DNA of 64,000 nt from a bacterium. GTDB taxonomy: Bacteria > RBG-13-61-14 > DATKZS01. The DNA lies in contig CAXXFL010000002.1 in NCBI GenBank assembly GCA_963674965.2, positions 32,001 to 96,000 of the forward strand. Direction: 5' to 3'. Shown here in pieces: positions 31,519 to 60,333 of this stretch. The first letter of the stretch is position 1; every line of letters begins with the position of its first letter. Position numbers and translations under genes: made by a program. A model generated the notes under the pieces. It saw nothing but the letters and a program-made list of their open reading frames with translations, was not told the DNA's origin and searched no databases.

Positions 31519-33289
31519 GCGCATATCTGGGAGGTATGAAATTGAAGTATGCAAGTGTAAAGGTCATCTTGATGGCGGTGCTGGCGGTAGTTGTTATTCC
31601 AAGCGCGAAGGTAATGGGGGCTGGAACCAGGAGGATATGGTCTCCTGAATTAGAAATGATGTTCATGTCTCCCTTTCGGGATTATTATCGTCCATCCAGT
31701 TTTGAATTCATAGACACTTTGACGGCGGCCCCGCATTTCTTATTCAAGGACGTCACGATAGGGTCTGATGGAGGCTATGGATTCTCCATTATACGGCGAT
31801 CCAATCCTTATGGATGCGATAACGTGTATAAAAAAATTACCGGAGATTATGATTTGATTATTGACTCTCAAATGACTCCCTTTGGATTATATTGGGACGT
31901 TTTGGATGAGGTTCTTTATTTCAATCAAATTAAGATAAGGGACCTTGGGAATTGGAACCCCGGCGAGCAAGATATATATTCTGTAGTCTCTTTTCTGATC
32001 ACCCAGGAAGGTGAATTATATTTCTTTAGACCTTGCGAGGGAACAGGTTGTTCATGGCGGGGAGACTACTGGAAAATTATCGAGCCTCAGGACCCTTACC
32101 CTTTTTCCGGCAACACCGTTACCGCGAGGCAAGAATTATATTTTTCAGACAACAACTGGAGGCTTGAGGCCATTTCAAAAAGTAGGGCGCCAGGTTGCCC
32201 ATATGAGCATGTCGAGGCGACACTATATCTTCCCGATGGCACCAAAAAGAAATATCAAAGAACGGATGGAATCTATTCTGGAACTGTCGTTGGAAGATTA
32301 AAATTGGTTGAGATCGATTATCCTAACGGCTCCGTCGTAACAATAGAGTATCTGGCTTCTGACGCCGTTGACACCTACGGTTTTTATAACGCTCCAGAGC
32401 GGGTCACTCTCACTGGCGCCGGCAGCACGACTTATAATGTGGATTTCATTTATGAAAACGTATCGTCCGAGGTCGCCCAGTATGAAAATTCCCCATCTTA
32501 TTCTTATCGTCCCGCCGGGAGCCTAAAAAGGCTTGACGTTTCCCAGAACGACGAATATTTATACAGCCGTTATTACTATTATCACGATATTCCAGAGGAA
32601 TTTTATTGCTCACCCGTGAAGAACGGCTTCACTTGTGATTTTTTCGGGGCCAGCGACTATCAGCTCGTGGACACTTTTATTCTTGATTCTGGGGCCACCG
32701 TCGACATTTGGAACGATCTATCAGACGTTTTAAACAATTACACCGTATCAGATTTTTGGCACTTTGAGCCTTTTTCTTTCCTCGGAACCGGGACCGATGT
32801 ATGCGAGAGCGAGGTTGTTTCCGGTGATCCGGGTGAAGTTAGCTGCTCTCCTTTTGACAATAATGGGTTGTGCGAGTTTCTTTGCCCTCCTCCAGAGATA
32901 AAGGCCATTACGACTCCCTGGGGCGCGAAGATATTATATGATTATGATGGTATATATTACGACCCGCAAGTCGATTTTGGAGCGACTCCTTCCGGCTGGA
33001 ATGAGATAACCGACGGTATCTGGGAACGCAGTGCAACAATTTACTTCAGGAATATTTTGGAGCAGAGAAGCGAGATCAATAAATTAAACGGCCGCGTCGA
33101 TACCTTTAACGCTATGAAAAGGGTCGGGAGCGGCGATCAGGTCGGGACTTTAAAGACCACGATAGAAATCGACAAGCTGATGGACGGCATGAATCCCCAT
33201 ATATTCCGATGTTTCGCCGATTACATCCCGAACGAGACGGATATTGCTTCTCAATTTCATTCCTTAAAAAAGGAGATGGTATGAATGAA

Positions 33290-33480
33290 GAGTTTTGAGG
33301 TGGTAAATACTTCAACTAGGTTAGGAATGATCTATTGGAGTAGGCGGGTCGTGGGCTGGATCGTTTTCGTGAGGCTTATGACCTCGTAAAGGAGATTAGT
33401 CAGCCCCGCGACTGGAGCGCCACCGTAAGGCTAGACCTTGTATAGGAGTTTGGCGGCCCCTCAAAGCGTGTCTACTCCGA
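33290..33480 (+). ncRNA. Putative IS110 bridge RNA (approximate limits)
   Basis: Two homologous stem/internal-loop units in the left end. They contain AAAGGAG (33388-33394, equal to the target flank plus core) and ATAGGAG (33442-33448, equal to the element right end plus core). Confidence 0.62.
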
Positions 33481-33517
33481 CCTTAGATCAAATTTATTTC
33501 TAGGGAGGAGTAAGGAA

Positions 33518-34534
33518 ATGGGAAGGTACATTGGAATCGATCTGCACAGGAATTGTTTCACCTCTTGCGTCCTGGCCGAGAACGGACGGAACTATCTCAA
33601 GGACTGGCGTCTCGAGGATTTGGAGAAGTTTTGCTCGACGCTTCGCGAGTCCGACGAGATCGCGGTTGAGGTCACGGGCAACGTCCGCCTTTTTTACGAC
33701 GCCGTTCGCGGCCTCGTTTCCCGCGTCGTGGTTGTCAACCCTCGCCAGTTCAAGGTCATCAGCGAGTCGGTCAACAAAACGGACGGCAACGACGCCAGAC
33801 GCCTTGCCCTGTTTTTGTCCAAGGGCCTTTTGCCGGAGGTGAGGATGCCGAACAAGGAACACGCTCAGGTTAAAAGCCTCACTCAAAGCCGGGACAAGCT
33901 GGTGAAGCTTCGCACGGCCTTGAAGAACAAGATCAACAACATCTGCTCGGCCCACGGCATCAACCTGAAGAAGGAATATCTTTCCAGCGAGAAGGGCCTT
34001 GAGACGGTGCAGGAGATACCTTTCGACCCCATGGTCAAGACCGAGGTCCGCGTCCTGGTGGAGCAGATTCGGGGCTTGAACGCCGGGGTCAAGGAGCTTG
34101 AGGCCGCCATCAAGGACTCGGGCAATCAGCTTCCCGGTCACAAGAATTTGAAGAGCATAAAGGGTATCGGGGACCTTGGCTCGGCCATACTTTTGTCGGT
34201 GATCGTTGACGTCAAGGACTTCCCCGACGAGGGCAAGCTGGCCTCCTACTTCGGCATCGTCCCCCGGGTTAGCAACTCGAACGAGACCAGCCGCTCGGGC
34301 CGGATCACGAAGCGGGGCAACAAACTCGGCCGCACTACCCTGGTCCAATGCGCCCTCATCGCCAAGCGTTACAGCCCTTATTTGTCGAGCTTCTACGAGC
34401 GTATCAAGGCCAGGCGCGGCGCGGGCAAGGCCATCATCGCACTGGCTCGCAAATTTTTGAAGATCATTTACATCACTTTACAGGAAAACTTGATTTGGGA
34501 GGACTTCCCGAACGGAGTAATAGCGAAAGGCTGA
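33518..34534 (+). CDS. IS110-family DEDD transposase/recombinase
   Basis: GIDLH, AVEVT and KTDGND motifs; IKGIG...LASYFGIVPRVSNS...GRITKRGN. Confidence 0.93.
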   Translation: MGRYIGIDLHRNCFTSCVLAENGRNYLKDWRLEDLEKFCSTLRESDEIAVEVTGNVRLFYDAVRGLVSRVVVVNPRQFKVISESVNKTDGNDARRLALFLSKGLLPEVRMPNKEHAQVKSLTQSRDKLVKLRTALKNKINNICSAHGINLKKEYLSSEKGLETVQEIPFDPMVKTEVRVLVEQIRGLNAGVKELEAAIKDSGNQLPGHKNLKSIKGIGDLGSAILLSVIVDVKDFPDEGKLASYFGIVPRVSNSNETSRSGRITKRGNKLGRTTLVQCALIAKRYSPYLSSFYERIKARRGAGKAIIALARKFLKIIYITLQENLIWEDFPNGVIAKG

Positions 34535-37411
34535 GTTTGTAAAATAATTCAGCTAATTTAAAAGGTTGGGTAGACAACCATCATAGGAGTATTATTATTA
34601 CGACACCTCCTCCATAAGCGAGAACGGTTCAATCTGGCGTTATCAAATCCTCAAGGCTTTAAAGACGTTCGGGGTTCGAGACGACGGCGGTGTTTTCAAC
34701 TTAGAAGACGTGGAGTATGAATGGATTGGTCGGCCATCGCCTTTTTTACTTGGCATCCGGATGGTTTCACAATATTCCGCCACTTCGGTTCCTTACTACG
34801 TTTATTACAACAGGTACGTTGGCGGTTTAACGCAATCCTTTATTGATCCGACTCCCATGATCCCGGTGCTTTCCGGAGTTGAGATGATTCGCGACGGCAT
34901 CACCTACAACATGGAGGCTAGCGACTTCAACATGTACAACTCTCCCGGCAGGGTCGTGTCCTCCATGGACGGGGGTTATTCGAGGACGAGCAATTACACG
35001 TTCAATCATGAGGCCCAAGTAAGCGGGGACACCTACATGATCGGCGTGACAACTAACACAGACTCCAGCCTGAACGGGGGCACGGGCAACGTCGGAAGTT
35101 TTAGAACGGACATGGCTAATGGCCTCCTCCAGGCCTCGGTGGTTGACATGAGCGCTCTTAGCTTGGAGTACGACTCAGGCGGCAACGTAACCAACTCCAT
35201 GGGCGACGATGGCGTTAAAAACACTTACGAGGGCTATACAATGGGTCGCCCCAAGACGGTCAAACTCTACGACGAAGCTTTACGAGGCGACATGAAATAT
35301 AACGCTTTAGGACAGGCAACGGAAGTGAAAGTACCTAACGCCGGCGGCTCTGATATAATTTATCAATACATTTACGACAATATTGGGCGTCTGAAGTCCA
35401 TTATCCGTCCCGGTTCCTTGTATGACACGGAGATAACCTACCAGGGAGGTACGAGTACCACTGACGGTCCCTCCCAGGATTATTATAATTTATATTACTT
35501 TACTGATAGTAGAAAGAGCGTTACCGGGGACCGCGAGAGTATAGATCATCTGGACGGCTGGGGACGTGTTTGGAAATCGGAAAGGAAAACAAACGACGGC
35601 TATAGTATCACAAGATTTATAAGACGCGACGTTTGCGGGGTTCCCCGGTATTCGTGCTCGCCCCTAACCTCGGATTTTAACGACTTCCAGTGCGTTAACG
35701 TTTCCATTTCCATTAGCGCCCTTGACGCCTTTGGACGTCCTTCCTTTTCCACGGATCAGTCGGGAGAGGACGATGAGTTAGGAAGATACGTATCTTACGA
35801 GTACGAGGGTGGGAGTCAGGGTCTGGATGTGGATATAAACGTTGGATGCGTTTCGGGTTCTACTTTTTGCAAGAATGAACCTTATTCTACCAACTATAAA
35901 GAGGTCTATAAGGGTCCTGGTCCAGGCGAGCTATATATGACGGAGCGAGTGGGGCCTACCGTGAGCGGCGGGCCTACTCCTCGCAAGTTTAAATATAACT
36001 ATGGCTCAAAGGGCGAGCTTCTTTCCATATCCGAGGAGAGCGGGGCGGGCATTGGGGACCGTGAATTCACTTACGACGCCAAGGGAAACGTTATCGGCAC
36101 ATACAGTCCCGAGTCCGGCCAGAGAAGATTCACGCGCGATTCTAGAGGCCGGATAACGTCGATCAGGGCCTCGGACAACTCGGTCGTTAATATGACCTAT
36201 GACCGAGCCGACCGGGTGACGCAAATCCAGGCCGTTGGCGTCAATCAGCCTCTTTACAAGTTTACCTATCACTCGGGATCGGGCAGCCTGACCAAGGAGG
36301 AGGGAGACTGGAACCAGGTTTCCTACGATATCGATTACGATTACAACAACTCGGCTCCTCTTCTTGACGAGGTTTTAATTAATTACACCGTCCCCACTTC
36401 AACGGGCGTTGATTACGCCGACTTTAATATCAAATACGACTATAACGAATACGGCGAGGTAACCTCGGTAGACTACGATGGAGAAATGACCATCAATCTA
36501 ACGCGTGATTATTTGGGCAGGGTGAGGTCCATATCCAAGTCAGGGGCGGACGATATCATGGAGTCGATTACTTATCAGCCGGACGGCTCGCTTAAGCGAA
36601 TGACTTATGGAAACGACGTGGTAACGGACATTTTCCAGTTCTATGGCCTTGGCATTATCTCGGAGATATCCATACGCACGAAGGCGCAGGCACAGGCCAT
36701 CAATCGGGATGATATAACCGAAGATATTATCAGGATAGCCGGCGGCGGCTCCTACGATTATTGGAACGAAAGATATGGATATTACGACGGCTCTTACCAA
36801 TACTTCGACAATTATCTCAATCCACACAAGGCTGAAATCGGTCCCAATTATACCAGCTACCGACTTCAAATCGACGCGCAATACGACAAGGAACAACGTC
36901 TTTCCAAAGCGTCTTACTCCGACTTGCAAGGCGACACGGTATTTTTAGACATAACTTATGGTTTTGATCGTCGAGGCAACAGGACCTCGAAGAATCTGAC
37001 ATGGACCCCAGGCTCATCCGAGACTTATTCATACAACTACGATTCACTAAACCGCATCTCTTCAGTGACCGGCAATACCTTGGCCACCAGTCCAACCATC
37101 GGAGATTACGTTCACGACTCGCGGGGCAACGTTATCCAGACGCCCACGCACAAGTACGGCTTCGATCTTTTCGACCGGCTGGTTGACGCCGACGACGGCA
37201 AGGTCAAAATCTATTACACGGCGGGCGGCAACAAGTTCCTAAAGGTGACCGAGGAGGAGGCGACCGTCTATTTCTATGATCCAGGCGGTCGAATGCTATG
37301 CGAGAAGACCTTCCGACTTAGCGACTTCCGGCAGCTTAGCCGCAAGTTATACGTCTACGCCAACGGCCAGATGGTGGCCCAGTTTTAGTCGAAGAAGAAG
37401 AGGAGGATAAA

Positions 37412-38227
37412 ATGAAAAGGTTATCTTGCTGGAACTGGATCACTATTAACAAAGCCACTGGCATCGCATTGGCGGTTCTATTTTCAATGTTCATGGCGGC
37501 CTTCATGGGCTGCGGTAAAGGAATGGATAGGACCGGCTCGGACGGCGACGCCGGCGCGGCAGTTTCAGGAAAACAAGCTTCATCCTCATCGGTGAAAGAA
37601 CGGGCTGTCCCCGCCAATACCGCAACCGAGCGCAAAGAGCCTAGGAAGGGCATACAACGCTCCCCCGTTGGAGAAACCAATCTGCGGGCGAAAATACGCG
37701 GACTCGCCTCTTCCAAAAACAAGGCTGAGGCTAATGAATCCATTGATTCGCTCACCGATATTTTCGAAGGTGGAGATAATAATCATGACCTGGCCACAAG
37801 GACCCTGGCGGCGGCGGCCTTGGCCGAACTAAGCAAGGCCGAGGAAGACCGAGCGGCGGCTGTTGCCTCCCTCGAGCCTCTCCGCAAGGCCCTATTTCGC
37901 GATAAGAGCGCGGTGGTCCGAGCCTCGGCCGCGCGCTCACTGGGGGCGAGCGGCTACATCGAGTTCAAGTCCCCCCTTGAGTTAGCCATGAAGACCGACG
38001 CGTCGCTCCTTGTCCAGACGGCGGCTTCCGAGGCCCTTGAAAAGCTAACGGGCGAGACGTTAGTCTCTCCGGTCGAGAAGGCGCTAGCCGAGTCCACCAT
38101 TCCGACCAGGCGCTCCCTTTCCTCTTCGGTCTCATCGGAGTGTATCCCCAGGGAGTTATTCGAGTCGCTAAACGAGCACCTCTTGATTCTCGATCCCGAG
38201 AACGCCGAGCGATCGATATGCAAGTAG
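37412..38227 (+). CDS. HEAT-repeat lipoprotein
   Basis: Hydrophobic stretch ending in lipobox-like FMGC; HEAT-like VVRASAARSLG and LVQTAASEALEKL; strong SD GAGGAGG. Confidence 0.75.
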   Translation: MKRLSCWNWITINKATGIALAVLFSMFMAAFMGCGKGMDRTGSDGDAGAAVSGKQASSSSVKERAVPANTATERKEPRKGIQRSPVGETNLRAKIRGLASSKNKAEANESIDSLTDIFEGGDNNHDLATRTLAAAALAELSKAEEDRAAAVASLEPLRKALFRDKSAVVRASAARSLGASGYIEFKSPLELAMKTDASLLVQTAASEALEKLTGETLVSPVEKALAESTIPTRRSLSSSVSSECIPRELFESLNEHLLILDPENAERSICK

Positions 38228-38250
38228 GCAAGGAAACAAGGAGCGAAGCC

Positions 38251-41200
38251 ATGAAGTTAAAGGTAATGAAAGCGGCGGCGATCTTCGTCATATTTTTTCT
38301 AGCGGCGGTAATTGTAGGCTGTGGAGCCAATCAGAACAGCTTTGTCAAGGGACTTGGCCCGGCTTACACGGAGGTAATGTCTCTCGGCAAGAACGTGGAA
38401 ATCCTGGACCCGTCCATGGAGGACAACCAGCATAGACTCGTGGTGTTTTTCGACAGGTGCGTTGACGACGACACGGTGACCTTGTCTGATCTTGAGCTTT
38501 ACGGGCAGACCGTTACAAATTTCGATTCTTACCTCACTCCCAGTCAATCCGTCTTTAACTTCGATTATTGCTTTACAAAGTCATGGGACTCCCTTTCCAG
38601 CGGCGCTTATTTCACCGGTACTATTTGGGCGTCCACGACCGAGTGCGAGTCCGGCTATAGCGACAAGCTCTACGTGGGCCTCGTTGACGATGACACGCTG
38701 TGGCACGGAATGGACGATTATGAAGGAGCGTTCGCGTATAAACTGGTAATTGATAAGATATTCCATGACTCGGAAGAGAATCAATCAAGCGGCGACGTAA
38801 TCAATTATTTCATCGTGCGCGACTTCGCGAATAACGCGAAACATCCCACTTTGAGCCACGTTTATCCGGCGAGCGGCTCGGGGCTTTCCGGCGACTCCCT
38901 TTTATACATGCCCATGCCTCCTCACTCGACGTTTACTCTTGGAAGTTCCGAGCCTGTTCTCAACCTGTCTTATATTCCCTATGAGGTTTTCTGGCACGAC
39001 GACGATCTCCATGCCCCGTTTGACGGCCCTTCAATCGGCAATCCCAGCGTAATAGTCAGAAATAACAGAAAAATCGAGATCGGCGCTTCCTCGGGAATGC
39101 CTCTCGATATCGAGTACCATTTTTGGATTTACTCTCGTCCTCAGAACTATTACGACGTTACCTATGGTCCAGGCTCGGGAGCGACCATTTCAATGGACGG
39201 AGAGTTATCGGACGTCCTTCTTGTTTCTCCTCCCCCAATCAACGCGTTTGGCAAGGCCATCGTTCTTCCCTCGGACTCGACCTTCCAAATACTTGAGGAA
39301 GACGTCGTCGAGCGGGACGTTTTCCACGCCGGCTTTTACAGTGATCATCCCACATACGTTAAGGTCTATGAAGTAAAAGGGCGCGTCGGACCGGTCGTTA
39401 TCGACGAACCAGTTACATATTCCTATCATAAAGCGGCGTACTCGGAGAGCTACTTGACCGTGAGGGCCACGCCGGACGTGGACGAGGTCCGCATAACCAT
39501 GGACCACTGGACCGACTTGATCGGCTCCGAGATGGGCGTGGAAATAACCGACGAGCTTAAGCCTCTTTCCAGTCTTTCCATGCCCTTGTTTTCGTCAACG
39601 GTCCTCGCTCCCGCCATGTCGAGGAATGGCCAATACATGTTCTATTGGGCGCAGGACGGGACCACCGACAATGTCTTTCAGGTCTACCGGACCGACCTGA
39701 CGGTTGACGGATATTCCACGGACGCGCTGACCTCGTTTACCGTGGGCCGCGACGACGCTCAGGCGCTCGCCAGCCATAGTATTTCACCCAACAACGCGGG
39801 TGATCAGGCCGTGTTCTGGTCTCGCCAGGACCTTGAGGACGGTGAAACGTCCACTGATGGAGAATTGTATTTTTGGGACGAGAGCGAGGGCCTGTTTCAG
39901 GTCACTACCAGCGATCTTTTCGGGGACACCAGGGGCGAGCCAAATTATGACGCCGTTCTTTCCTATGAAAATATTTTCTTCTTTTGGACGGAAAACTCTT
40001 CAGCCGGCGACACGCTCGATCATTATGAACTCCTCAGATGTACTTACAGTGACGTCGGAGGGCCATACCCCATTGGCTGTGTAAATATCGTCCAGGGCAC
40101 TACTTTGCATCAGCAAGGAATTAATCCACGCTTGTCCTCGACTACCAACGGAGAATACGTGGCGTTCGTTTCCGCCGAGGACTGGGACGCGTCGGTCGGC
40201 AACTCGGACTACAACTATGAAATTTTCTACTATGGGGAATACGGAGTGGGCGTTCACCAGGTCACTGATTCCGGGTCCACCGTGACCAACGATTATCCAG
40301 TTATCGCCGACGATTCATTACAGTCGATTTACTTCAGTTCCAACGGGAATTACGGCGGAATAGACGGATTTTCCAATGATGGAGACTCTGTCTCCACCGA
40401 GCTTTTCGTTTATAGGAGGCTCAGCGGCGACACCGCCGTCTATAACGAGATTGAACAGATAACCAACGCCTCTCCCGGCGTTACGGTTATCCCCGCCGGT
40501 GTATCCTTGCCTGACGGTAACGGCAATATCGACGTTCTGGTCCTTTCCAATCATAATTTTTCGGGAGACACGGTCACGTCCGGATATAACTACTTCCTCC
40601 TCCAACCCACGAGATACGCCGACGACAGGACCTATAACGCGTGGGGCTACGCGATCACGACCGAACCCGTTATCGCCTCTGCCGGCGACGCTCCGCCTCT
40701 CGTCTCCATGGACGAGGAAAACGAATGGATACTCTTTTCCAGCGAGGAGCAATTGCTTCCAGGCGACACGAATTCGGACCTTGACGTCTATCTATTTCAT
40801 TACAAGGGCCTGGAGAAGAGTTTCACCATCTCTTGGGAGGACTTGATCGACGAGTTCAATTCCCAGAACTCTACTAATTATCGGACAGAGGTCCTGTTGC
40901 CTCGTAAAAGGCATCGGATTACCGTGCATTCATCCACCGCCGGCAGCCCCGGCGTGGACGCAATAGATTTCATCTTCACCGCCGACGACGACTCGGACTC
41001 CGACGGACTTAGCGACGCTTGGGAGATCGAATACGGATACGACCCTTACATCGCGGACAGCGATAGCAACTCCATCACGGACGACCTCGAGGACCCGGAC
41101 GGGGACGGAGTTATCAACTCCAGCGAGGAGGACAACTACACGAATCCCCAGCTGGCGGATTCAGATGGCGATGGACTGGACGATGACGTGGAAATCGGCT

Positions 41201-44200
41201 ACTGCACAAGCCCTATCGACGACGACTCGGATGATGACGGCTTAATAGACGGTCGGACCATGGGCGAGGACCAGGATAATGACGGGGAAGTTGACGCGGG
41301 CGAGACCAACCCATGCTATTACGATACGGACGGAGACGGCCTGCTTGACGGAGTGGAGATAGGCTTCGGTTCGAACCCTCTACTAACGGACACGGATGGC
41401 GATTCGTTATCGGACTACGTCGAGATCATGACGGCCAACACCGACCCCACGCTTGTTGACACTGATGGCGATTCATTGGGCGACGCGGCTGAATATGACT
41501 ATTGCACATCTCCGAGCGATCCCGACTCCGATGGAGACGGCCTATGCGATGGAAACACCTCCGTTTATGACGGTCCCACTTTATTGTGCTCCAACGGCGA
41601 GGACGCCGACCTCGATTTCGAGGTTGACGCGGGAGAAACCAACCCCTGCCGGGCAGACACTGACGGCGACGGAATGAATGACGCTTATGAGAGAGAATAC
41701 TCTCTTGATCCCCTGGACCCCTTCGATGCTTTGACTATATTGTCCAGCGCCACGATAGCCGATCCGGATGGCGACGGAGTGGACAATCTATACGAGGCGC
41801 AAAACGGCACTAATCCTTACGTTGCCGACAGCGACGAAGATGGCGTGTCCGACCTGGAAGAACTTGCCTTGGGCACCGATCCTGGAGACGCGACTTCCAA
41901 TTCCGACGGAGATTCTCTTATAGACAGCGTTGAAGTGACGCTGGGGACATCCCCCAACTCAGATGACACGGACGCCGACGGACTGAGCGATTATCAGGAA
42001 ACCACGGCCCTCTACGGCTTGACGATTGGAATGGGATGCACCATCGTGCCCACGAATCCCGACAGCGACGGCGACGGCATTCCCGATGGACTCGAGGATA
42101 TCGACCTGGACGGCGTCCTTGACGGAAATACGGAGACTAATCCCTGTATAGCCGACACTGACGGCGACGGCATGGACGACGGTTGGGAGGTCTTCTGGGG
42201 CCTGAATCCCCATGTCCAGGACGGGGACACGGACTGGGACTCCGACGGCCTCACCAACCTTCAGGAGTTCCTGCTCTACAAGGGGGCCTCATGCGACGCT
42301 TCCGCCGGGTGCCCGGGAGACACGATAACCGTCTATCTCAACCCGCTTATCGCGGACGTGGACGGCGACACCATGGAAGACGGTGAAGAGATACTTATGA
42401 CCGGCTCGACCGTCACCGCCTACGTCTGCAATCCCATCAAGCGCGACACGGACGGCGATAATGTCCCCGACTATTTCGAGGCCGTGATTAGCCTGTGCCT
42501 CGATCCCATGGACCCCGACACGGACGACGACGGCATTCCCGACGGGGTCGAGGATAAAAACCAGGACGGAATCAGGCAGAATATCGAGACCAACCCGTGC
42601 CTGGCCGACACCGACGGCGACGGGCTGGACGACTACGAGGAACTGCTCTTCGGGTCAAACCCGAGAAACGCCGACACCGACGGCGATGACTTAACCGACG
42701 ATCTCGAGTACTTCTATATGACCGATCCCAACGGCTACACCGACAGGAACGACAACGGCATATACGACGAGTTGGAATTGGTGGAATATGGCATACCTCC
42801 CATATACGTGTTCGATGACATGGACGGCGACGGGCTGGTTAACGGCGACTCCACCGGCGAGGACAAGGACAACGATTACGTGGTGGACTCGGGCGAGACC
42901 GACCCCTACGACATGGACACCGACGGCGACGGGCTGCCCGACGGGTGGGAAATCGAGCATAACCTGGACCCGCTCGAGGCCAACACCTGCTCCTTTTGCG
43001 CGGACAACGACGAGTTGACCGACCGCTCCGAGTACCTCCACCATACCCATCCCGGACTCGACGACACCGACTCCGACGGCATGGACGACGACTGGGAAAT
43101 CCTCTACGGCCTCGATCCCCTGACGGACGACTCGGCCGCCGACCTGGACGGGGACACCCTCACCAACCTCCAGGAATACTCGCTGCTCACCAACCCCAGG
43201 AGCGCGGACTCCGATATCGACGGACTAAGCGATTACCTGGAAACCCAGGCGCTATACGGCCATACCGTCGGAATGGGCTGCGCCACGTCGCCCACTAATC
43301 AGGACTCGGACGGCGACGGCGTGCCCGACGGCCTCGAGGACTTCGACCAGGACGGGGCCCTGGACGGCGACACCGAGACCAGCCCCTGCCTGGCCGACAC
43401 CGACGGCGACGGCTTGCCCGACGGATGGGAGCTTATCTGGAACTCTTACCCGCTGACCGATGACGCGACCTCGGACTACGATTCCGACGGGCTTGACAAT
43501 CTCGGCGAGTACCTGGCCGGGACCAACCCCTACCACAAGGACACGGACCACGACGGCATGGACGACAAGTGGGAGGTCGACGCCGGAGACACCCTCGACC
43601 CGCTCACCAACGACGCCGAGGCCGACCCCGACCACGACGGAGTGACCAACATCGAGGAATGCTGCGCCATGTTCCTCGAGCCCTACCACAAGTGCGGCAA
43701 TAGCTGCGACGACGACGCCCTCGATCCCCTCTCGAGCGACTCCGACGGCGACTCCCTCGGCGACTACTGGGAACTCAAGTACCTCCATCCCACGGTGGAC
43801 GATGACCTGACCGCCGACCCCGACTCGGACTCCATCTCCAATATCTGGGAGTTCAGGTTCGGCACGAACCCGGGCTCAACCGACACCGACGGCGACGGCC
43901 TTACCGACCTCCAGGAAATCTCCTTTGACGGCGATTTATCCTTCGACGGGAGCACCGCTTACCACCCCTACGTCAACGTGTGCATCGGCGACGCCGACGA
44001 GTGCGATCTCAACCCCACCCTGGCCGACACCGACCACGACGGACTGTCCGACTACCAGGAACTGTACGGAAACACCCCCACCAGCCCCGTCAACTTCGAC
44101 ACCGACGGAGGAGGAGACCCCGACGGGATCGAGTTGAATATCGGCCACGACCCCACCAACTCCGGCGACGATTACTACGACGCCGCCGGGCTGTCCTTCC

Positions 44201-47200
44201 CGCCGGCTACGGTTAGTGAAACGGTAACGAGAACGGTGGACGGGGCGTTTCTAGCGGATATTGTTGCTTATAATAATAAAGCTTATATACACTACGCATA
44301 TGAAAACGGCGTTACTTTAAGCGGAAATACGCTATATCTTAAATCGCTTCTCATTACTGGCGGATCACTTTCTTTTTCTTATGAAACTCCTTCGCCAGCA
44401 AATTCATGGCGTTTGGCCCCTGAGGATCATTTAAGCGTTGGTATATATGATGGGGATGGAGACTTTACGCATATGATTGCCTTTCCCCGCGTCTATAGCG
44501 GAACGACGCAAAGAGAACTCAGAGTATGTAAGTGGTATTACTCTAATGTGTTTGAAAGATGTTGGGCCTATAGCGATCTATTCTCTCCGTCTATCGAGGG
44601 ATGGTATCCTCTGGATAATGCGGTGGGCAATTTGATTACTTTAGTTGGCCAAAAGGTTGATCCTGAAGATCCCACGAAAATGTCGGTCGTGTACAAGGAC
44701 GGAACGCATACTTCAGATTTTGAAACATATCCTGATTGGTTTTATTGGTATGATTTTCATACTATCATCGATGATCTCGATATTGATGATATATCTACGA
44801 TTGATTTGAAATATCCAAGCCACACCGGTTCGCCCGTTTATGACTGGCTGGCCTATTTTTCTAATGGTTCAAAAAAATATATATACGCCCGATATTCCGA
44901 TGACTTGGGAAATTTTGACCTGGGCACATATAAAGCATATAACCACCAGGAGGGGACTTTCTTCACCGGCGGCCTCCAGGCCGGGGATACCGTTAAATAC
45001 GACGTGTATCGTGGTTTTACCGGATATGATATCGGTTTCTTCGCGGACAATATCTCCCACTTCCCGGACCATATAAATCAGACTGAAAAGCCCGTGGCTT
45101 TCGCCGCCGAAACCATTGGCGAGACGCGTCACGTGGTTTGGAAATCCGCGGTCGAAACCCCGGTGGGATCGGGCCAGACCAAGTCGGTCATACTCTATTC
45201 CAACGACGAGGTGTGGGCGGATTATTACAAAGACTCGCTGGACGACTCTCCTGAATGGAGACCGCCGGTCTTAATATCAAATCCCGACAATGACGCCGTC
45301 CTGGCAAGAATCAAGGCCAGCCCCAATAAAGAATACCTGCACGTGATCTGGGTGGAAAAGGACCCGTCGGATACTTATCACGTGTACTACTCGAAACTGG
45401 ACGTGGGGGAGTATTACGGATCGACGCTGTTTGACGACGATGATTCTGATAATCTTCTTAAAATCGAAGAATACTACGCGGGATCGTCGGACTCCGATGA
45501 GGACACCGATGATGACGGCATGTGGGACGTCTCCGAGGCGCTTTTCGGCCTGGACCCAACCGACCCGTCAGATGGAGACACCGGGGCCGGATGCCATGAC
45601 CTCGACCAGGACGGGCTGTGCAATTATGACGAATATTTTACGTATTTAACCGATGGTACAAGTAAAGATACCGACCTCGACGGAATGCCCGACGAGTGGG
45701 AAGTTCTTAATAATTTAGTCCCCGACGATCCTCAGGACGCGTATGATGACGAAGACCAGGACCATTTAACAAATATCGATGAGTACCGCTATGGTACTAA
45801 TCCATTGTATTGGGATACCGACGCGGATACCGTACCCGATTACTATGAAATACTCGATGGTAGCGACCCTCTATTAGCGGACTCACTAACCGCAGATTAC
45901 GACGGGGATGGATTAGACTATGAAGGAGAATTATTTTTAGGGGGAAACCCGTATAAACCCGACACCGACGAGGATTATTTAACCGATTTTGAAGAGGATG
46001 ATATATGGTATACATATAGAATTGAAGTCTATTTCTCTGACAGTGACTCCGACGGCCTGACCGATAGTCTTGAGTATTTCGCCCTCGCCTCAGCACCCGA
46101 CGATTTCGACAGCGACAATGACAATATGGACGACGGATGGGAACTCGAACACGGCTTCGATCCCATATCGGCCGCTAATGGCGGGACGGCCGACGCGGAT
46201 GGCGATGGAATAATAAACGTTGACGAGTGCGGCCCGGCGCAGATCGAAGGTCCGGAAGGTCTCGAGGGGCAACCACTTTGCAGGTCCGAAATCAACCCCG
46301 TCTCCATTGATTCCGACTTTGACGGCTTCACGGACGGGTGGGAGGTGGAGTACGCGGATAGCCTTGGGTTCGATCCGGTGGTGGTGGAGTGCGATACGGC
46401 GGTGGCGGATTATGACGGGGACGGGATGGCGGCCATTATCGAGGCGAGGCTGGGGACCAACCCGCTGTTGGCCGACTCGGACGGGGACGGGATCGACGAT
46501 TATTGGGAGGTCATCGCCGGGCTGGACCCGCTGGTGGACGACGCGGCCGATGACCCCGACGGGGACGGGAGGACCAATCTCGAGGAGTACCAGAACTCGG
46601 GCTACTTCTACACCAATCCACTGAGTCCCGATACCGACGGCGACGGGCTGTGCGACGGCGTGACCTCCGTCATGAGCGGCGAGACCGTGATATGCGGTCC
46701 AGGGGAGGGAGACTCGGCGACGCCCGAGCTGGACGCGGCGCGGCTACGGCTCCTGGCCGAGAGCGCCATCGGCGAGTTGACCCTCGGCGACGGCGACACC
46801 TGGTCCGACGAGCTCGAGGAGGGCGACACTCTCAAGCTGTCCGTGGCGAAGGCGCTGGACGCGGGGACGTACACGGTGCGCTTCGATAATGGGTCGGGCT
46901 CGGTTTACGCCATCGAGGCGTACGTGTCCGAGGGCGCGACATATATATTTGTGGACACGGGAGACCTCGGGGACGACGCCTCGGGAAATTTCGACATTGA
47001 CGTGGTGGACGACTCGGGCTCGAGCCTCCTCGACTCGGGCGCCGCCTCGGTCAATATCTCCCAGCGGCTCTACCTCCATTACGGGCTCCACTCCCCGGTG
47101 GTCGCCACCAACTCCGACGGCGAGACCGTCTGGCGCCGCGCCTATCTCCCCTTCGGCGCCGACTTCTCCGGCTCGCCCTCCCACCCCCTCACCATCGCCA

Positions 47201-48060
47201 ACTCCTCCATCACCCACGGCTTCGTCGGCCGCCGCTCCGACAACGACGTCGGCCTCTACCAACTCGGCGCCCGCTGGTACGACCCGGATTTGGGGAGGTT
47301 CGTCAGCGTCGATCCGGTTGCCGGGGGCATCAACCAGTACGCCTACGCTTATAACAACCCGTTCGTGTACCAAGACGCGTCAGGAATGGAAGGAGAAGTC
47401 GCGGAGGCCGCCTTAGGTTATAGTGAATGTTTAGGCGCGTATTCGCATGCTTTGTTTCTGGTCCCTGCGGACGCCGTTAATGAAGCTTCAGGCGGCAGAT
47501 TGCGTTCCACTGAAAATGCACATCTGGCGTATTATACTTATTACATGCCAGAGCAAGGCGACCCCACGAGGGCTTGCTATCAGCTTGGTTATGGGGTTGG
47601 CGTTTCATCCGCGTTGGTGGGCGCCGCTGAATTGCTCATTGAACTTTATGCGGCTGGTGACTCTAGCCAGGATATAGCTCCGCCTTCAGAGCCAGTGGAC
47701 CCGAATTACGAGCCGCCGTCGCCTGAGCCTGCCCCTGAATCATCTCCAGAAACAAAGGAGTTGCCAGAAGATATACAGAGAAGACATGATAAACTAAACG
47801 AAAAAGACAGAAGTGGAATGGACTTCACAAAAGCTGGCAAAGATAACGTTAAAGATATAAATAGGCATAATAATGATGGAACGATGAAGTGTGAAAATTG
47901 CGGCCAGGAGGTTGTTGACGCAGAACAGCACAAATCCGGAGTTACACCGCCTGGTAATGAAGCTCATGTTGACCATAAAACTCGAAAGAGAGAAAATGGT
48001 CGTGGCAATCCTGACAATGGGCAGGTGTTATGCCGAGATTGTAATATGGAGAAGCATTAA
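38251..48060 (+). CDS. Giant lipoprotein polymorphic toxin (3269 aa): TolB-like propeller, TSP3-like Ca-binding repeats, RHS core, HNH nuclease C-terminus
   Basis: SD AGGAG with MKLK...IVGC lipobox. PD40-like motifs (PAMSRNGQY, TTNGEYVAFVS) and dozens of DxDGDG..D..E...NP repeats. Core [22 protein letters not shown]...NNP...DASG; toxin CENC...HVDH...NGQVLCRDCN. Confidence 0.88.
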   Translation: MKLKVMKAAAIFVIFFLAAVIVGCGANQNSFVKGLGPAYTEVMSLGKNVEILDPSMEDNQHRLVVFFDRCVDDDTVTLSDLELYGQTVTNFDSYLTPSQSVFNFDYCFTKSWDSLSSGAYFTGTIWASTTECESGYSDKLYVGLVDDDTLWHGMDDYEGAFAYKLVIDKIFHDSEENQSSGDVINYFIVRDFANNAKHPTLSHVYPASGSGLSGDSLLYMPMPPHSTFTLGSSEPVLNLSYIPYEVFWHDDDLHAPFDGPSIGNPSVIVRNNRKIEIGASSGMPLDIEYHFWIYSRPQNYYDVTYGPGSGATISMDGELSDVLLVSPPPINAFGKAIVLPSDSTFQILEEDVVERDVFHAGFYSDHPTYVKVYEVKGRVGPVVIDEPVTYSYHKAAYSESYLTVRATPDVDEVRITMDHWTDLIGSEMGVEITDELKPLSSLSMPLFSSTVLAPAMSRNGQYMFYWAQDGTTDNVFQVYRTDLTVDGYSTDALTSFTVGRDDAQALASHSISPNNAGDQAVFWSRQDLEDGETSTDGELYFWDESEGLFQVTTSDLFGDTRGEPNYDAVLSYENIFFFWTENSSAGDTLDHYELLRCTYSDVGGPYPIGCVNIVQGTTLHQQGINPRLSSTTNGEYVAFVSAEDWDASVGNSDYNYEIFYYGEYGVGVHQVTDSGSTVTNDYPVIADDSLQSIYFSSNGNYGGIDGFSNDGDSVSTELFVYRRLSGDTAVYNEIEQITNASPGVTVIPAGVSLPDGNGNIDVLVLSNHNFSGDTVTSGYNYFLLQPTRYADDRTYNAWGYAITTEPVIASAGDAPPLVSMDEENEWILFSSEEQLLPGDTNSDLDVYLFHYKGLEKSFTISWEDLIDEFNSQNSTNYRTEVLLPRKRHRITVHSSTAGSPGVDAIDFIFTADDDSDSDGLSDAWEIEYGYDPYIADSDSNSITDDLEDPDGDGVINSSEEDNYTNPQLADSDGDGLDDDVEIGYCTSPIDDDSDDDGLIDGRTMGEDQDNDGEVDAGETNPCYYDTDGDGLLDGVEIGFGSNPLLTDTDGDSLSDYVEIMTANTDPTLVDTDGDSLGDAAEYDYCTSPSDPDSDGDGLCDGNTSVYDGPTLLCSNGEDADLDFEVDAGETNPCRADTDGDGMNDAYEREYSLDPLDPFDALTILSSATIADPDGDGVDNLYEAQNGTNPYVADSDEDGVSDLEELALGTDPGDATSNSDGDSLIDSVEVTLGTSPNSDDTDADGLSDYQETTALYGLTIGMGCTIVPTNPDSDGDGIPDGLEDIDLDGVLDGNTETNPCIADTDGDGMDDGWEVFWGLNPHVQDGDTDWDSDGLTNLQEFLLYKGASCDASAGCPGDTITVYLNPLIADVDGDTMEDGEEILMTGSTVTAYVCNPIKRDTDGDNVPDYFEAVISLCLDPMDPDTDDDGIPDGVEDKNQDGIRQNIETNPCLADTDGDGLDDYEELLFGSNPRNADTDGDDLTDDLEYFYMTDPNGYTDRNDNGIYDELELVEYGIPPIYVFDDMDGDGLVNGDSTGEDKDNDYVVDSGETDPYDMDTDGDGLPDGWEIEHNLDPLEANTCSFCADNDELTDRSEYLHHTHPGLDDTDSDGMDDDWEILYGLDPLTDDSAADLDGDTLTNLQEYSLLTNPRSADSDIDGLSDYLETQALYGHTVGMGCATSPTNQDSDGDGVPDGLEDFDQDGALDGDTETSPCLADTDGDGLPDGWELIWNSYPLTDDATSDYDSDGLDNLGEYLAGTNPYHKDTDHDGMDDKWEVDAGDTLDPLTNDAEADPDHDGVTNIEECCAMFLEPYHKCGNSCDDDALDPLSSDSDGDSLGDYWELKYLHPTVDDDLTADPDSDSISNIWEFRFGTNPGSTDTDGDGLTDLQEISFDGDLSFDGSTAYHPYVNVCIGDADECDLNPTLADTDHDGLSDYQELYGNTPTSPVNFDTDGGGDPDGIELNIGHDPTNSGDDYYDAAGLSFPPATVSETVTRTVDGAFLADIVAYNNKAYIHYAYENGVTLSGNTLYLKSLLITGGSLSFSYETPSPANSWRLAPEDHLSVGIYDGDGDFTHMIAFPRVYSGTTQRELRVCKWYYSNVFERCWAYSDLFSPSIEGWYPLDNAVGNLITLVGQKVDPEDPTKMSVVYKDGTHTSDFETYPDWFYWYDFHTIIDDLDIDDISTIDLKYPSHTGSPVYDWLAYFSNGSKKYIYARYSDDLGNFDLGTYKAYNHQEGTFFTGGLQAGDTVKYDVYRGFTGYDIGFFADNISHFPDHINQTEKPVAFAAETIGETRHVVWKSAVETPVGSGQTKSVILYSNDEVWADYYKDSLDDSPEWRPPVLISNPDNDAVLARIKASPNKEYLHVIWVEKDPSDTYHVYYSKLDVGEYYGSTLFDDDDSDNLLKIEEYYAGSSDSDEDTDDDGMWDVSEALFGLDPTDPSDGDTGAGCHDLDQDGLCNYDEYFTYLTDGTSKDTDLDGMPDEWEVLNNLVPDDPQDAYDDEDQDHLTNIDEYRYGTNPLYWDTDADTVPDYYEILDGSDPLLADSLTADYDGDGLDYEGELFLGGNPYKPDTDEDYLTDFEEDDIWYTYRIEVYFSDSDSDGLTDSLEYFALASAPDDFDSDNDNMDDGWELEHGFDPISAANGGTADADGDGIINVDECGPAQIEGPEGLEGQPLCRSEINPVSIDSDFDGFTDGWEVEYADSLGFDPVVVECDTAVADYDGDGMAAIIEARLGTNPLLADSDGDGIDDYWEVIAGLDPLVDDAADDPDGDGRTNLEEYQNSGYFYTNPLSPDTDGDGLCDGVTSVMSGETVICGPGEGDSATPELDAARLRLLAESAIGELTLGDGDTWSDELEEGDTLKLSVAKALDAGTYTVRFDNGSGSVYAIEAYVSEGATYIFVDTGDLGDDASGNFDIDVVDDSGSSLLDSGAASVNISQRLYLHYGLHSPVVATNSDGETVWRRAYLPFGADFSGSPSHPLTIANSSITHGFVGRRSDNDVGLYQLGARWYDPDLGRFVSVDPVAGGINQYAYAYNNPFVYQDASGMEGEVAEAALGYSECLGAYSHALFLVPADAVNEASGGRLRSTENAHLAYYTYYMPEQGDPTRACYQLGYGVGVSSALVGAAELLIELYAAGDSSQDIAPPSEPVDPNYEPPSPEPAPESSPETKELPEDIQRRHDKLNEKDRSGMDFTKAGKDNVKDINRHNNDGTMKCENCGQEVVDAEQHKSGVTPPGNEAHVDHKTRKRENGRGNPDNGQVLCRDCNMEKH
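40981..46660 (+). repeat. Thrombospondin type 3-like acidic repeats, two blocks (~40981-44180 and ~45430-46660)
   Basis: Recurring GACACCGACGGCGACGG-type units encoding D(T/S)DGDG(L/M)xDxxE. Confidence 0.85.
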
Positions 48061-48062
48061 TA

Positions 48063-48512
48063 ATGAAAAGAAAAGAAAAGAAAATATTGTTAGTTTATAA
48101 AGACTTTGATGACGTTTTTCAAATTGAAAGCGTTTGGGCTGAGAAAATGGATGAATATTATAGAATTGTCAATATTCCATTTTTTGCTAAAAACGTCGCC
48201 TATGGTGACATCGTTGCAGTGGAAAACGACGGGGGAAGTCTATACTTTGATAGCCTAATAAAACCTTCAGGCCACAGCACAATTCAAATGATAATTAATG
48301 ATCCTAATGAATTGAAAGGCATTGGAAATACATTAGTTAGTATGGGATGTGACTGGGAAGAAAGTCATATCAAAGGATACATTTCGATAGACATTCCTAA
48401 AAATGTTGATTATACACAAATAAGAAAATATTTAGAAGAAGGATTGTCGCAAAATAAATGGGACTACAGGGAAGCATGTTTAAGTGATGAACATCGAGAG
48501 AGTACGAAATAG
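48063..48512 (+). CDS. Cognate immunity protein, DUF4265-like
   Basis: AT-rich ORF 2 bp after the toxin stop; ESVWA...NIPFFAKNVAYGDIV...SGHSTI pattern. Confidence 0.75.
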   Translation: MKRKEKKILLVYKDFDDVFQIESVWAEKMDEYYRIVNIPFFAKNVAYGDIVAVENDGGSLYFDSLIKPSGHSTIQMIINDPNELKGIGNTLVSMGCDWEESHIKGYISIDIPKNVDYTQIRKYLEEGLSQNKWDYREACLSDEHRESTK

Positions 48513-48665: not shown

Positions 48666-49232
48666 ATGATATATCATAATACAGAATTGATTAAAGAGCA
48701 TTACGAAACCAACTGGAATAATGCGGCAGCAATAAAAAAATGGAATAAAGGGCCAATTCATGAATTGCCTCAATTTTTTAGCGTCCTTGAGTTTAGGCCA
48801 ACCATAAAAAGGGATATGTGGACATATGCAACATGTGGAATGTCAACACTTCAAGATCGGGAAAAGATCGAATTACATATACACTCACCAGAAAGAAATG
48901 AAGGCCTCGTAGAGCTATTAACCGTAGTAGTACATTTTCACGCAACTGATAGTAGTCTTGGTCTATGGCATACCGTTAATTTTGGAAGAGGATGGTTGCC
49001 TGATTCCAATTGTGAATATGGCCTTATTTCATTGCCTTATCTTGACGGTCCAGGCTTTGAAATATTAAAGAATAACAATGATGCCGTTTCTTTTTATTGG
49101 TTAATTCCAATTACAAAAGATGAAGTGGACTATAAAATAAAAAATGGAATAGAATGTCTTGAAGATGCTTTAGAGAAAGCAAACGTTAAATATCTTGATA
49201 AATACAGGGCCAGTGTTATCGGCTGTGAATAG
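48666..49232 (+). CDS. Suppressor-of-fused (SUFU) family immunity protein, orphan
   Basis: WTYATCGMS...IEL...LGLWHTVNFG...FYWLIPITKDE. Confidence 0.8.
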   Translation: MIYHNTELIKEHYETNWNNAAAIKKWNKGPIHELPQFFSVLEFRPTIKRDMWTYATCGMSTLQDREKIELHIHSPERNEGLVELLTVVVHFHATDSSLGLWHTVNFGRGWLPDSNCEYGLISLPYLDGPGFEILKNNNDAVSFYWLIPITKDEVDYKIKNGIECLEDALEKANVKYLDKYRASVIGCE

Positions 49233-51139: not shown

Positions 51140-51207
51140 TTTGCCAAGCTCGTAAAATGGTCTACAGTTAAGGGAATGAAAATACTATTTACAAGAATAA
51201 TTGGAGT

Positions 51208-51705
51208 ATGAAGGTGCCAGATTTTCAAAAATATTTTATGGAGTCAGGTGGCAAACCAATCGTGTATAATGGCAAAGAAATTCGGATGATGGATGAAATA
51301 CCTGTTCTTAACAGAGATGCCTTTGCTATTACTATTGAAAAATGTAATAGCGAGTGGAAACAAGGCATTTCCTTAGTAGTAAATGGCATTTTTCAAATAA
51401 ATAAGCAGAGGATTAAAAGGGGCATCCTTTTATGGCAAGACACTGCCCCAAGAACTTCTCAGTTTAAGCTGTCCTTAAATAAACCAGGTAAATTAATCAT
51501 AAAGAATGTTTGGGACACTGGTAATGGCGTCATCGAGTCATGGCATCATGGCGCAGGGATTATCGTTGAGGAGATAAAAAACGGAAAACGTTATCACTGC
51601 AATGATGGACATCCCGATGACAATTTCGACGATATAGTATTTATTATCACTAAAATCACTGGTAATACCAGCGAGCAGGTCGGCGCGTTTGATTTTTTGG
51701 GGTGA
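51208..51705 (+). CDS. Putative immunity protein 1
   Basis: AT-rich 165-aa ORF with GGAG SD directly after the toxin. Confidence 0.7.
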   Translation: MKVPDFQKYFMESGGKPIVYNGKEIRMMDEIPVLNRDAFAITIEKCNSEWKQGISLVVNGIFQINKQRIKRGILLWQDTAPRTSQFKLSLNKPGKLIIKNVWDTGNGVIESWHHGAGIIVEEIKNGKRYHCNDGHPDDNFDDIVFIITKITGNTSEQVGAFDFLG

Positions 51706-51738
51706 CCCGGGCTTAGGTTACAGCGTTACACGTAATTT

Positions 51739-51752
51739 CGCTCTTTGAAAAC
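51739..51752 (+). promoter_or_regulatory. boxA-like motif before cassette 2
   Basis: CGCTCTTTGAAAAC, starting 34 nt before the arm. Confidence 0.55.
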
Positions 51753-51772
51753 TTGTCATTATTACTTCCGCC

Positions 51773-53428: not shown

Positions 53429-53436
53429 GCACCGTT

Positions 53437-54102: not shown

Positions 54103-54129
54103 GCCTTAGATTAAAAGCTCGCGATCATT

Positions 54130-54143
54130 TGATCTTTGAAAAC
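54130..54143 (+). promoter_or_regulatory. boxA-like motif before cassette 3
   Basis: TGATCTTTGAAAAC, starting 34 nt before the arm. Confidence 0.55.
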
Positions 54144-54163
54144 TTGCCTCTGTTCTTTCCATC

Positions 54164-55936: not shown

Positions 55937-55962
55937 TAATAAGGATGATTCTGGTGATTGAA

Positions 55963-56457: not shown

Positions 56458-56469
56458 ATTCTGCGGCGG

Positions 56470-56680
56470 GTGGGCTATACGGTTTTGCATGAAAACCGTG
56501 TGGCTCTCGCGAAGCGAGACGGGTATACTGGTATCAGCTTCTCACGGTTCTTTGAAAAATCAATTTAAGCTTTTTGCTGCATGTAGTTGGAGTCGCAAGC
56601 TTCGACATGACGTGAGGCGCTAAGCCAGTTCGCTCCGCTCACCCACTCATTCGTAAAGAATGAGATGGGCCACCCAAGAG
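56470..56680 (+). repeat. Structured inter-cassette spacer, type B (copy 1)
   Basis: Hairpins ACGGTTTT/AAAACCGT, TCTCGC/GCGAGA, AAGCTT..AAGCTT and CCCACTCATTC/GAATGAGATGGG. Full copies at ~60840-61050 and ~62790-62993, partial copies at ~48545-48620 and ~58230-58295. Confidence 0.85.
56546..56559 (+). promoter_or_regulatory. boxA-like motif before cassette 4
   Basis: GGTTCTTTGAAAAA inside the type B spacer. Confidence 0.5.
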
Positions 56681-58515: not shown

Positions 58516-58535
58516 TTGCCTCTGTTCCTTCCGCC

Positions 58536-60311: not shown

Positions 60312-60333
60312 AATTAAGAATAGGGAGATCATT

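Follow-up and report, generated by a model that had tools for sequence, protein, structure and literature searches.

Gene organisation of the locus

A 64,000-nucleotide stretch of bacterial DNA (GenBank assembly GCA_963674965.2, contig CAXXFL010000002.1, positions 32,001 to 96,000 of the forward strand; referred to as the window, with position 1 at its first letter) was analysed for an operon in which the parts of an Rhs toxin are distributed over separate genes. Three closely spaced plus-strand genes with intergenic gaps of 23 nt encode a secreted YD-repeat protein (the shell), a HEAT-repeat protein, and a very large TSP3-repeat lipoprotein that ends in an Rhs core and a toxin (the giant). 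Every part of a canonical Rhs toxin is present save the contiguity of shell and core. Shine-Dalgarno-like sequences (GGAGG/AAGGAG) were found upstream of all three starts. Terminator-like sites were not in excess (16 found vs 19.3 expected). Pfam families were assigned to 36 open reading frames (ORFs) of the window, picked from the 77 of at least 150 aa with overlapping shadow frames skipped. Signal peptides and lipoboxes of all proteins were called by eye.

The shell gene lies in two pieces on the plus strand. The left piece (31536..33268) encodes a Sec-type signal peptide and the N-terminal 577 codons and is cut by an insertion sequence (IS). The right piece (34590..37388) comprises 932 codons with YD repeats and has the C-terminus ...YVYANGQMVAQF*, without an Rhs core. 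Excision of 1323 nt leaves the shell frame intact and yields a protein of ~1510 aa. The rejoined shell of 1512 aa described in the first-pass annotation thus stands as far as frame and approximate length are concerned; that rejoining is needed since an IS110-family element breaks the gene had gone unmentioned. For all analyses the two pieces were never joined; they were analysed apart, or intact paralogues from the same genome were used instead. The right piece matched RHS_repeat (Pfam, 2.4e-10) and YD_repeat_2x (NCBIfam, 4.8e-7), and no match to the Rhs core family TIGR03696 was obtained on it in the NCBIfam scan. The left piece (577 aa) matched no Pfam family at E<=0.01. It is homologous along its full length to the intact paralogues and to the metagenomic protein P0208, and a language-model look-alike search pointed to Rhs N-terminal regions, which was taken as a lead only. 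By inspection, the export signal of the shell is a plain Sec-type signal peptide, and the lipobox is found on the giant instead.

The HEAT-repeat protein is encoded at 37412..38227 on the plus strand (HEAT_2, 1.1e-11, Pfam), between shell and giant as previously annotated, and has an N-terminal signal with a possible lipobox (FMGC).

The giant (38251..48060, plus strand) is a lipoprotein of 3269 aa with Pfam matches to TSP3_bac and HNH. Its likely start at 38251 is preceded by AAGGAG, and the lipoprotein signal has its cysteine at residue 24. The signal is followed by an N-terminal globular region, a first TSP3 block (~914-1926), a middle globular region, a second TSP3 block reaching to ~2800, a small pre-core domain, the Rhs core and the toxin. 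Between residues 914 and 2794, 29 strict TSP3 motifs (DxDxDGxxD) were counted. The Rhs-associated core, a putative aspartyl autoprotease plug, is encoded at 47065..47385 (plus strand) and runs from RLYLHYG... to ...QDASG, with a predicted cleavage site after DASG. It matched TIGR03696 with an E-value of 7.7e-18 (ORF residues 3002-3083) and can be aligned to the cores of RhsA (7Q97), TccC, YenC2 and teneurin-like proteins. The aspartates of its YDP and QDA motifs are invariant in 18/18 aligned copies. The core is followed by a C-terminal toxin region of ~224 aa (47386..48057, plus strand) with an HNH nuclease domain at its end (Pfam HNH 5.9e-6, ORF residues 3251-3306). Core and toxin together make up the last 330 residues of the giant.

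The 2938 residues that precede the core are of a different kind. No RHS_repeat or YD_repeat match was obtained on the giant with Pfam or NCBIfam, a regular expression for YD motifs returned 0 hits, the shell profile gave no match at E<=10, and three canonical Rhs proteins matched the giant at the core only. A cryptic YD shell within the giant was excluded by these profile, regular-expression and canonical-Rhs comparisons. The missing core had been placed ~9.7 kb downstream of the shell, at the end of a TSP3 lipoprotein without YD repeats, and the profile match and the motif count agree with this. The giant was also compared with NF033765 (CglD-type gliding-motility lipoprotein); the match corresponded to the TSP3 repeats and scored 314 bits, below the NCBIfam equivalog cut-off of 400, and this assignment was rejected.

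VgrG, PAAR and TpsB families were not matched among the 36 ORFs scanned with Pfam, in agreement with the earlier remark that the window shows no VgrG, PAAR or CdiB-like gene. Elsewhere in the genome, a type VI secretion system (T6SS) sheath gene and one PAAR gene were found. The genome is that of a diderm (Omp85 family present).

Position of the break

The termini of shell and core were located by alignment with four canonical Rhs proteins. In these alignments the shell end (...KLYVYANGQMVAQF*) falls on the strand that leads into the core, and the core of the giant starts at the first core hairpin. The shell was therefore correctly described as a protein with a signal peptide that ends where an ordinary Rhs protein enters its core. 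Shell and core are not contiguous: the stop after ...VAQF is followed by the HEAT gene and then by the giant, and the same holds at two other loci of the genome. Frameshift or misassembly as the cause of the split was rejected, since each gene has its own Shine-Dalgarno-like motif and start, the three loci agree, and shells from other organisms share the stop; the first-pass annotation had likewise argued against a frameshift from the separate ribosome-binding sites and export signals.

Recurrence within the genome

Two further loci on another contig (C6; L004 and L005, here loci B and C) were detected by tblastn and have the same order of shell, HEAT and giant genes, which gives 3/3 loci in total. 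Neither shell gene is interrupted (1505 aa in one, an ORF of 1568 aa in the other), and both proteins stop at the same terminal residue as the window shell. The HEAT paralogues occupy the same position and are 98% and 70% identical to the window protein. The two giants have 3255 and 3323 aa, their own orphan arrays and different toxin tails.

The shell paralogues are 50-75% identical to the window pieces, with ratios of nonsynonymous to synonymous substitution (dN/dS) of 0.12-0.19 and synonymous sites near saturation; judged from these ratios, the shells are under purifying selection. The last 38 residues of the window shell are the same as in shell B, and shell C differs by 1 substitution. 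The core hairpin is nearly invariant in 15 aligned copies from this genome. Long tracts are shared between loci at the DNA level. Over 37501-41000, which covers HEAT and the N-terminus of the giant, the window locus matches locus B at 99-100% identity; over 42001-44000, in the TSP3 block, it matches locus C at 98-99%. DNA identity among the shells of the three loci is only 67-93%.

Relatives in other organisms

Relatives of the shell were collected in an exhaustive HMMER search of 1.84 billion representatives with a threshold of E<=1e-30, which returned 7 proteins, one of them the genome's own intact paralogue (P0001). Three metagenomic shells (P0207, P0208 and P0209; 27-33% identity over the shell piece) stop at the homologous ...NG[QR].VAQ[FY]*, and their homology spans the whole shell, N-terminal region included. 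P0210 is a fragment without the C-terminal end. P0211 and P0212 are continuous shell-core-toxin fragments, as is the weaker match P0245. Since both core-less and continuous shells were found, split and continuous forms coexist in the shell family. Recurrence of the split point and the gene order had been proposed as a check: both recur at the three loci of this genome, the split point also in the three metagenomic shells, and the continuous relatives stand beside the split forms, not in their place.

The second half of the giant core is 70-72% identical to the cores of P0211, P0212 and P0245. Other non-self Rhs cores reached at most 61% identity among 219 core matches in 368 collected proteins, a set biased by the way of its collection. 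These alignments suggest that the shell family and the giant core share ancestry. In P0211, P0212 and P0245 the last shell strand is followed by a short linker and then by the second half of the core, without the canonical first hairpin (YxHxDxLGS...YxPFG). This hairpin is present in most Rhs proteins and in the giant.

A relative of the giant was found in P0099 (2767 aa, cut off at the end), which has a lipoprotein signal and is collinear with the giant at 31% identity. It contains 0 YD motifs, and its C-terminal part consists of the pre-core domain and the first core hairpin. By its sequence, P0099 is a foreign giant of the same design. Scans of genome contigs did not find the contigs bearing P0207-P0209 or P0099, and a scan of metagenome contigs gave one match only, a distant ordinary Rhs protein (L007).

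Further searches returned ordinary Rhs proteins. A word-index search with the intact shell found, outside the genome, only canonical Rhs proteins, many of them, at ~25% identity, and the same search with the giant tail was dominated by TSP3 repeats. Among the long proteins listed and detected by a hidden Markov model of the core, only the own-genome paralogue was without YD Pfam families. In an orphan-core search against longer proteins, 83 candidates were scored and 14 matched, all of ordinary Rhs type; 13 of the 14 have YD-shell Pfam families, and the remaining one (P0360) has no Pfam entry and is named as an RHS repeat-associated core protein in its source. The shell family had no match in 40 other genomes (12 other species genomes of the phylum and 28 of other phyla).

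The N-terminal domain of the giant was found in 2 of the 13 species genomes by which the phylum is represented in the collection, namely this genome and G007, a member of the same order. In G007 three adjacent minus-strand genes (L012, 980-13035) encode a HEAT protein (28% identity to the window HEAT protein, E 3e-13), a TSP3 lipoprotein and an Rhs protein. The lipoprotein has 1181 aa, is homologous to the N-terminal region of the giant and ends after its TSP3 repeats. The Rhs protein has 2480 aa with a Sec signal, SpvB, FG-GAP, TcdB-mid and RHS domains and a core of its own (TIGR03696 3e-19); this core is preceded by a hydrophobic, membrane-like stretch and followed by a glycine-zipper domain. 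On the strength of these homologies, G007 independently ties the HEAT and TSP3-lipoprotein pair to Rhs cocoons. Together with this genome, the pair thus occurs with an Rhs cocoon in two connectivities: in G007 the cocoon is unsplit and unfused, and in this genome the lipoprotein carries core and toxin, with a gene of its own for the shell.

Prediction of the shell-core complex

For complex prediction, residues 70-932 of the right shell piece of the window (40-sequence alignment, 39 rows counted) were combined with a 121-residue core (18 rows). The interface score ipSAE was 0.83/0.83/0.82, and the best of 3 controls scored 0.00. The mark used for this score was reached by 58/80 solved complexes and by 2/110 mismatched pairs, a calibration that is rough here, where own alignments were supplied. 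The runs agreed in at least 91% of contacts, with a predicted local distance difference test score (pLDDT) of 79 for the partner and 83 for the shell. With an unrelated protein in place of the shell, the pLDDT of the core fell to 22. The predicted contact joins shell residues 927-932, the last six, to partner residues 86-94 (the QRLYLHYGL strand), as would be expected if the sheet continued across the break. Among the three paralogues, 70/80 predicted interface residues are invariant, vs 223/353 for the rest of residues 500-932. The shell-core interaction anticipated in the first-pass annotation is thus predicted by the model; it shows that the two halves still fit the known fold and is not proof of binding. 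In a Foldseek search with a model of the right shell piece alone, the top matches were Rhs, teneurin and Tc shells (E ~1e-23).

Insertion in the window shell and assembly support

The IS110-family element within the shell gene spans 1321 bp (33269..34589, plus strand), with the transposase at 33518-34534 (Pfam Transposase_20 1.6e-21, DEDD_Tnp_IS110 2.5e-15). Since the element interrupts the gene, the window shell copy is inactivated and dead. The genome contains 9 further copies of full length (99.6-100% identity), two of which lie head to tail on another contig. In run X3, one contig links the IS end to its own start (34584 -> 33271), which fits a tandem copy or a circular intermediate.

Misassembly had been named as a possible explanation that would undo the finding. 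Short-read unitigs support the junctions checked: in runs X1 and X2 (one sample; possibly the same data as the assembly itself), unitigs span both IS junctions at a depth like that of the flanks. None of these unitigs skips the IS, and no contig skipping it was seen, contigs being apt to drop rare variants.

A sigma-70-like site with 10/12 matches lies at 34571-34598 and straddles the boundary between the right IS end and the start of the right shell piece. Judging by its sequence and its downstream reading direction, this site might drive expression of HEAT and giant genes despite the insertion.

Proposed assembly in trans

In the prevailing view, an Rhs cocoon folds around its C-terminal toxin either as a single chain or as the TcB-TcC pair. 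The reading we favour, and regard as the probable one with some reserve, is that the operon encodes a polymorphic Rhs toxin cocoon divided between two exported proteins and assembled in trans on a lipoprotein stalk. An assembly of this kind had already been suggested in the first-pass annotation and, by homology and modelling, is supported as far as computation goes. The shell would be a Sec-secreted YD-repeat protein without the closing core. The TSP3 repeats of the giant probably bind calcium and would form a long stalk, and the HEAT protein may aid assembly or anchoring. After export, the first core hairpin would pair with the last shell strand, closing the shell with the core as plug and the toxin inside. 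The two core aspartates would then cleave after DASG. The toxin-filled capsule would be held non-covalently at the tip of the membrane-anchored stalk, displayed at the surface for contact-dependent delivery to neighbouring bacteria, and the producer would be protected by immunity genes. In structural work on Rhs proteins, the cleaved fragments remain non-covalently associated, with the aspartyl-protease domain as the seal at one end of the cocoon (PMC8765631); non-covalent retention of the capsule would be in line with this association of cleaved Rhs fragments. Orphan cassettes would swap the toxin by recombination in the region of TSP3 tail, pre-core domain and core of the giant, not in the shell, which would remain generic.

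A more far-reaching version is put forward only tentatively. The system may be an undescribed contact-dependent weapon that works without T6SS, type V secretion or TcA, and that consists of a calcium-stiffened TSP3 stalk, lipid-anchored in the outer membrane, with a detachable Rhs capsule at the tip. A few generic shells would be loaded in trans after Sec export and so serve ~20 exchangeable core-toxin cartridges, and the HEAT protein would be the adaptor in both the split and the unsplit (G007) forms.

Several points weigh against assembly in trans. The shell at the window locus is broken by the IS, and an uninterrupted allele was not seen in the contigs examined; the window giant and its cassette array are therefore kept without a shell of their own. 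Either the paralogous shells complement the broken copy or the shell is dispensable. To judge from sequence, the intact paralogues could substitute, because the shell tails are near-identical and the core hairpin is nearly invariant. The three loci are mosaics formed by recombination, and the three copies are therefore not fully independent. Shell and core-bearing giant were seen together in one genome only, because the neighbourhoods of the foreign shells and of P0099 were not recovered. As the continuous relatives are without the first hairpin, the giant core is not simply a piece cut from such a gene. Part of the complex score may stem from likeness to solved single-chain Rhs and Tc structures or from their recall by the model, and the folded portion covers only 863 of ~1510 shell residues and 121 residues of the partner, with toxin and HEAT protein left out. 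Residues pointing into a YD shell, as those of the interface do, tend to be conserved anyway. The AlphaFold2 model of the right shell piece alone was weak (mean pLDDT 59.5, predicted template modelling score 0.35, 10 sequences), and the template modelling scores of its Foldseek matches were accordingly low (0.13-0.19).

The persistence of the window giant, with its toxin, immunity genes and 7 orphan cassettes, beside a broken shell gene would be expected if the two proteins were independent, the core on the giant being a lone self-cleaving toxin release module and the YD protein a separate secreted adhesin or carbohydrate binder in the same operon. The TSP3 lipoprotein of G007 is without any Rhs part, so the stalk has a function of its own, and adhesive roles for RHS repeats were proposed in older comparative work (PMC3482391). 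We consider such independence unlikely nonetheless. In 3/3 loci and in 3 foreign shells the split lies precisely at the junction of two neighbouring strands of the canonical fold, and the core of the giant is closest to cores fused to relatives of the same shell family. An interface scored at 0.83 against 0.00 for the controls, with a core predicted to be disordered when another protein replaces the shell, also speaks for partners, as does the core's place as part of the cocoon wall and plug in solved Rhs structures (PMC8765631). All evidence for binding in trans would hold equally if the shell were only a transient periplasmic cage or chaperone that keeps the nuclease inert until the giant reaches the surface, without being part of the delivered weapon. 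The plain signal on the shell and the lipobox on the giant (and possibly on the HEAT protein), as judged by inspection, would allow the proteins to end up in different places, and one shell type could serve many cassettes whose core hairpin hardly varies. A cytoplasmic immunity protein is already encoded for each toxin, however, and known Rhs and Tc cocoons travel with the toxin (PMC8765631), which makes a mere cage rather improbable.

Decay offers another account, namely that the arrangement is left over from recombination of an rhs gene with a TSP3 lipoprotein gene, was spread by duplication in one genome and has no function as a split system. IS elements, recombinases and partition genes abound in the surrounding island, long identical tracts are exchanged between the mosaic loci, and one shell is already broken. 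The low dN/dS with nearly saturated synonymous sites is at odds with decay, as are the open frames of two shells (~1505 aa) and three giants (3255-3323 aa) and the ~30%-identical homologues in other organisms that keep the shell stop position or, in P0099, the core fusion. A relic is thus very hard to credit.

Comparison with known systems

The closest formal parallel to assembly in trans is the BC subcomplex of Tc toxins (TcdB2-TccC3, 4O9X; YenB-YenC2, 4IGL), a two-chain YD cocoon in which the second chain carries the Rhs core and a variable toxin; here the two-chain cocoon is predicted only. TcC brings ~550-600 shell residues before its core (core at 552-664 in TccC2 and 597-690 in YenC2), whereas the giant brings none. 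Unlike in Tc toxins, the window shell has no SpvB or TcdB-mid domains in the Pfam scan, Sec signals are present on both chains, and a lipoprotein stalk of 3000 residues carries the core. PF12256 was not found in the genome (97.6% complete), and TcA (PF03538, VRP1) had no match there, in a search whose control likewise matched in no genome. Membership of the Tc family was rejected in view of the second chain without shell and the lack of SpvB and TcdB-mid domains.

Single-chain Rhs effectors (P. protegens RhsA 7Q97, Tse15 and Salmonella bongori Rhs) share with the window system a YD shell, a core with conserved aspartates, a polymorphic toxin, a downstream immunity gene and orphan cassettes. 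In contrast to these effectors, shell and core are here on different polypeptides with another gene between them, PAAR, VgrG and prePAAR are absent from the window ORFs scanned, and export, to judge from the signals, is by Sec. The orphan cassettes also differ in that they share the TSP3 tail and pre-core domain, not terminal YD repeats.

Bacterial teneurin-like proteins (Nat Commun 2026) were described as rare Sec/SPII lipoprotein-anchored YD-shell polymorphic toxins with immunity genes and proposed surface display; they are single chains with an invariant superfold of FN-plug, NHL and YD-shell (PMC13018210). The window system resembles them as a rare Sec/lipoprotein YD-shell toxin. It differs in that no FN-plug or NHL family was found here by sequence (Pfam), the lipid anchor is on the shell-less chain, and the shell is secreted separately. 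It was not assigned to the teneurin-like family, as FN-plug, NHL and YD-shell do not occur here in one lipoprotein chain, by sequence.

Metagenomic single-chain proteins with TSP3 repeats, YD-shell and core (P0122, P0133 and P0146; LamG-like, ~3200 aa) likewise combine TSP3 repeats with a cored Rhs cocoon, but have all parts in one polypeptide and are not close relatives of shell or giant. The G007 operon shares a homologous HEAT protein and the giant's N-terminal domain with TSP3 repeats, set beside an Rhs toxin with a Sec signal. Unlike in the window, shell, core and toxin are kept in one Rhs protein there, and the lipoprotein stops after the TSP3 repeats. The G007-type operon of HEAT protein, TSP3 lipoprotein and Rhs protein is undescribed before. 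Outside Tc BC, no description of an Rhs system with shell and core on separate proteins was found in open-access full texts, the architecture supplements of PMC13018210 and PMC3482391 excepted.

If the assembly in trans is true, the core would suffice to dock to and load a pre-made shell, which would give a handle on toxin entry into Rhs, Tc and teneurin-type cocoons. It would also establish, for Rhs toxins, export through Sec and a lipoprotein with a stalk of a new kind, and place the hot spot of toxin-exchanging recombination outside the shell gene. The system is rare (2/13 species genomes of the phylum, with the unsplit G007 form counted, and a handful of metagenomic proteins). It should be of interest to research on Rhs, Tc and teneurin cocoons and on contact-dependent toxins, the central claim being based on prediction and comparative genomics.

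Immunity genes, orphan cassettes and mobile island

The gene directly after the toxin (48063..48512, plus strand; DUF4265, PF14085 7.4e-31) is the probable cognate immunity gene. It is followed by a gene for a SUFU-family protein (48666..49232, plus strand; PF05076 1e-14); Imm-SuFu is described as an immunity superfamily in polymorphic toxin systems (PMC3482391). An array of 7 orphan cassettes occupies 49355..63998 on the plus strand and runs on past the window (tblastn matches of 74-90% identity). Each cassette consists of a TSP3 tail and/or pre-core domain, an Rhs core, a distinct toxin tail and a small downstream gene. TIGR03696 was matched in the cassette ORF at 49355-51139, and Pfam matches to TSP3_bac, Col-Pyo_DNase and Imm11 were obtained in the array.

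In a comparison of window positions 47001-49300 with an orphan cassette of locus C (L006), the start of the toxin tail and the SUFU gene were 96-98% identical, while the HNH end and the DUF4265 gene had no match in that cassette. Because of this pattern, the toxin tail of the window giant looks like the product of a recent tail exchange.

Upstream of the operon, an element of two ORFs, one for an HTH transposase and one for an rve integrase, is present in 3 copies (3688-5240, 11478-13030 and 27552-29104), a layout that we take to be of IS3 type. Serine recombinases and ParB/RepB genes lie around the three copies. From the transposase elements, serine recombinases and ParB/RepB genes it follows that the toxin locus is situated in a mobile island. 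An ORF of 1028 aa at 8110-11196 combines N-terminal ATP-dependent DNA ligase domains with a C-terminal AAA ATPase.

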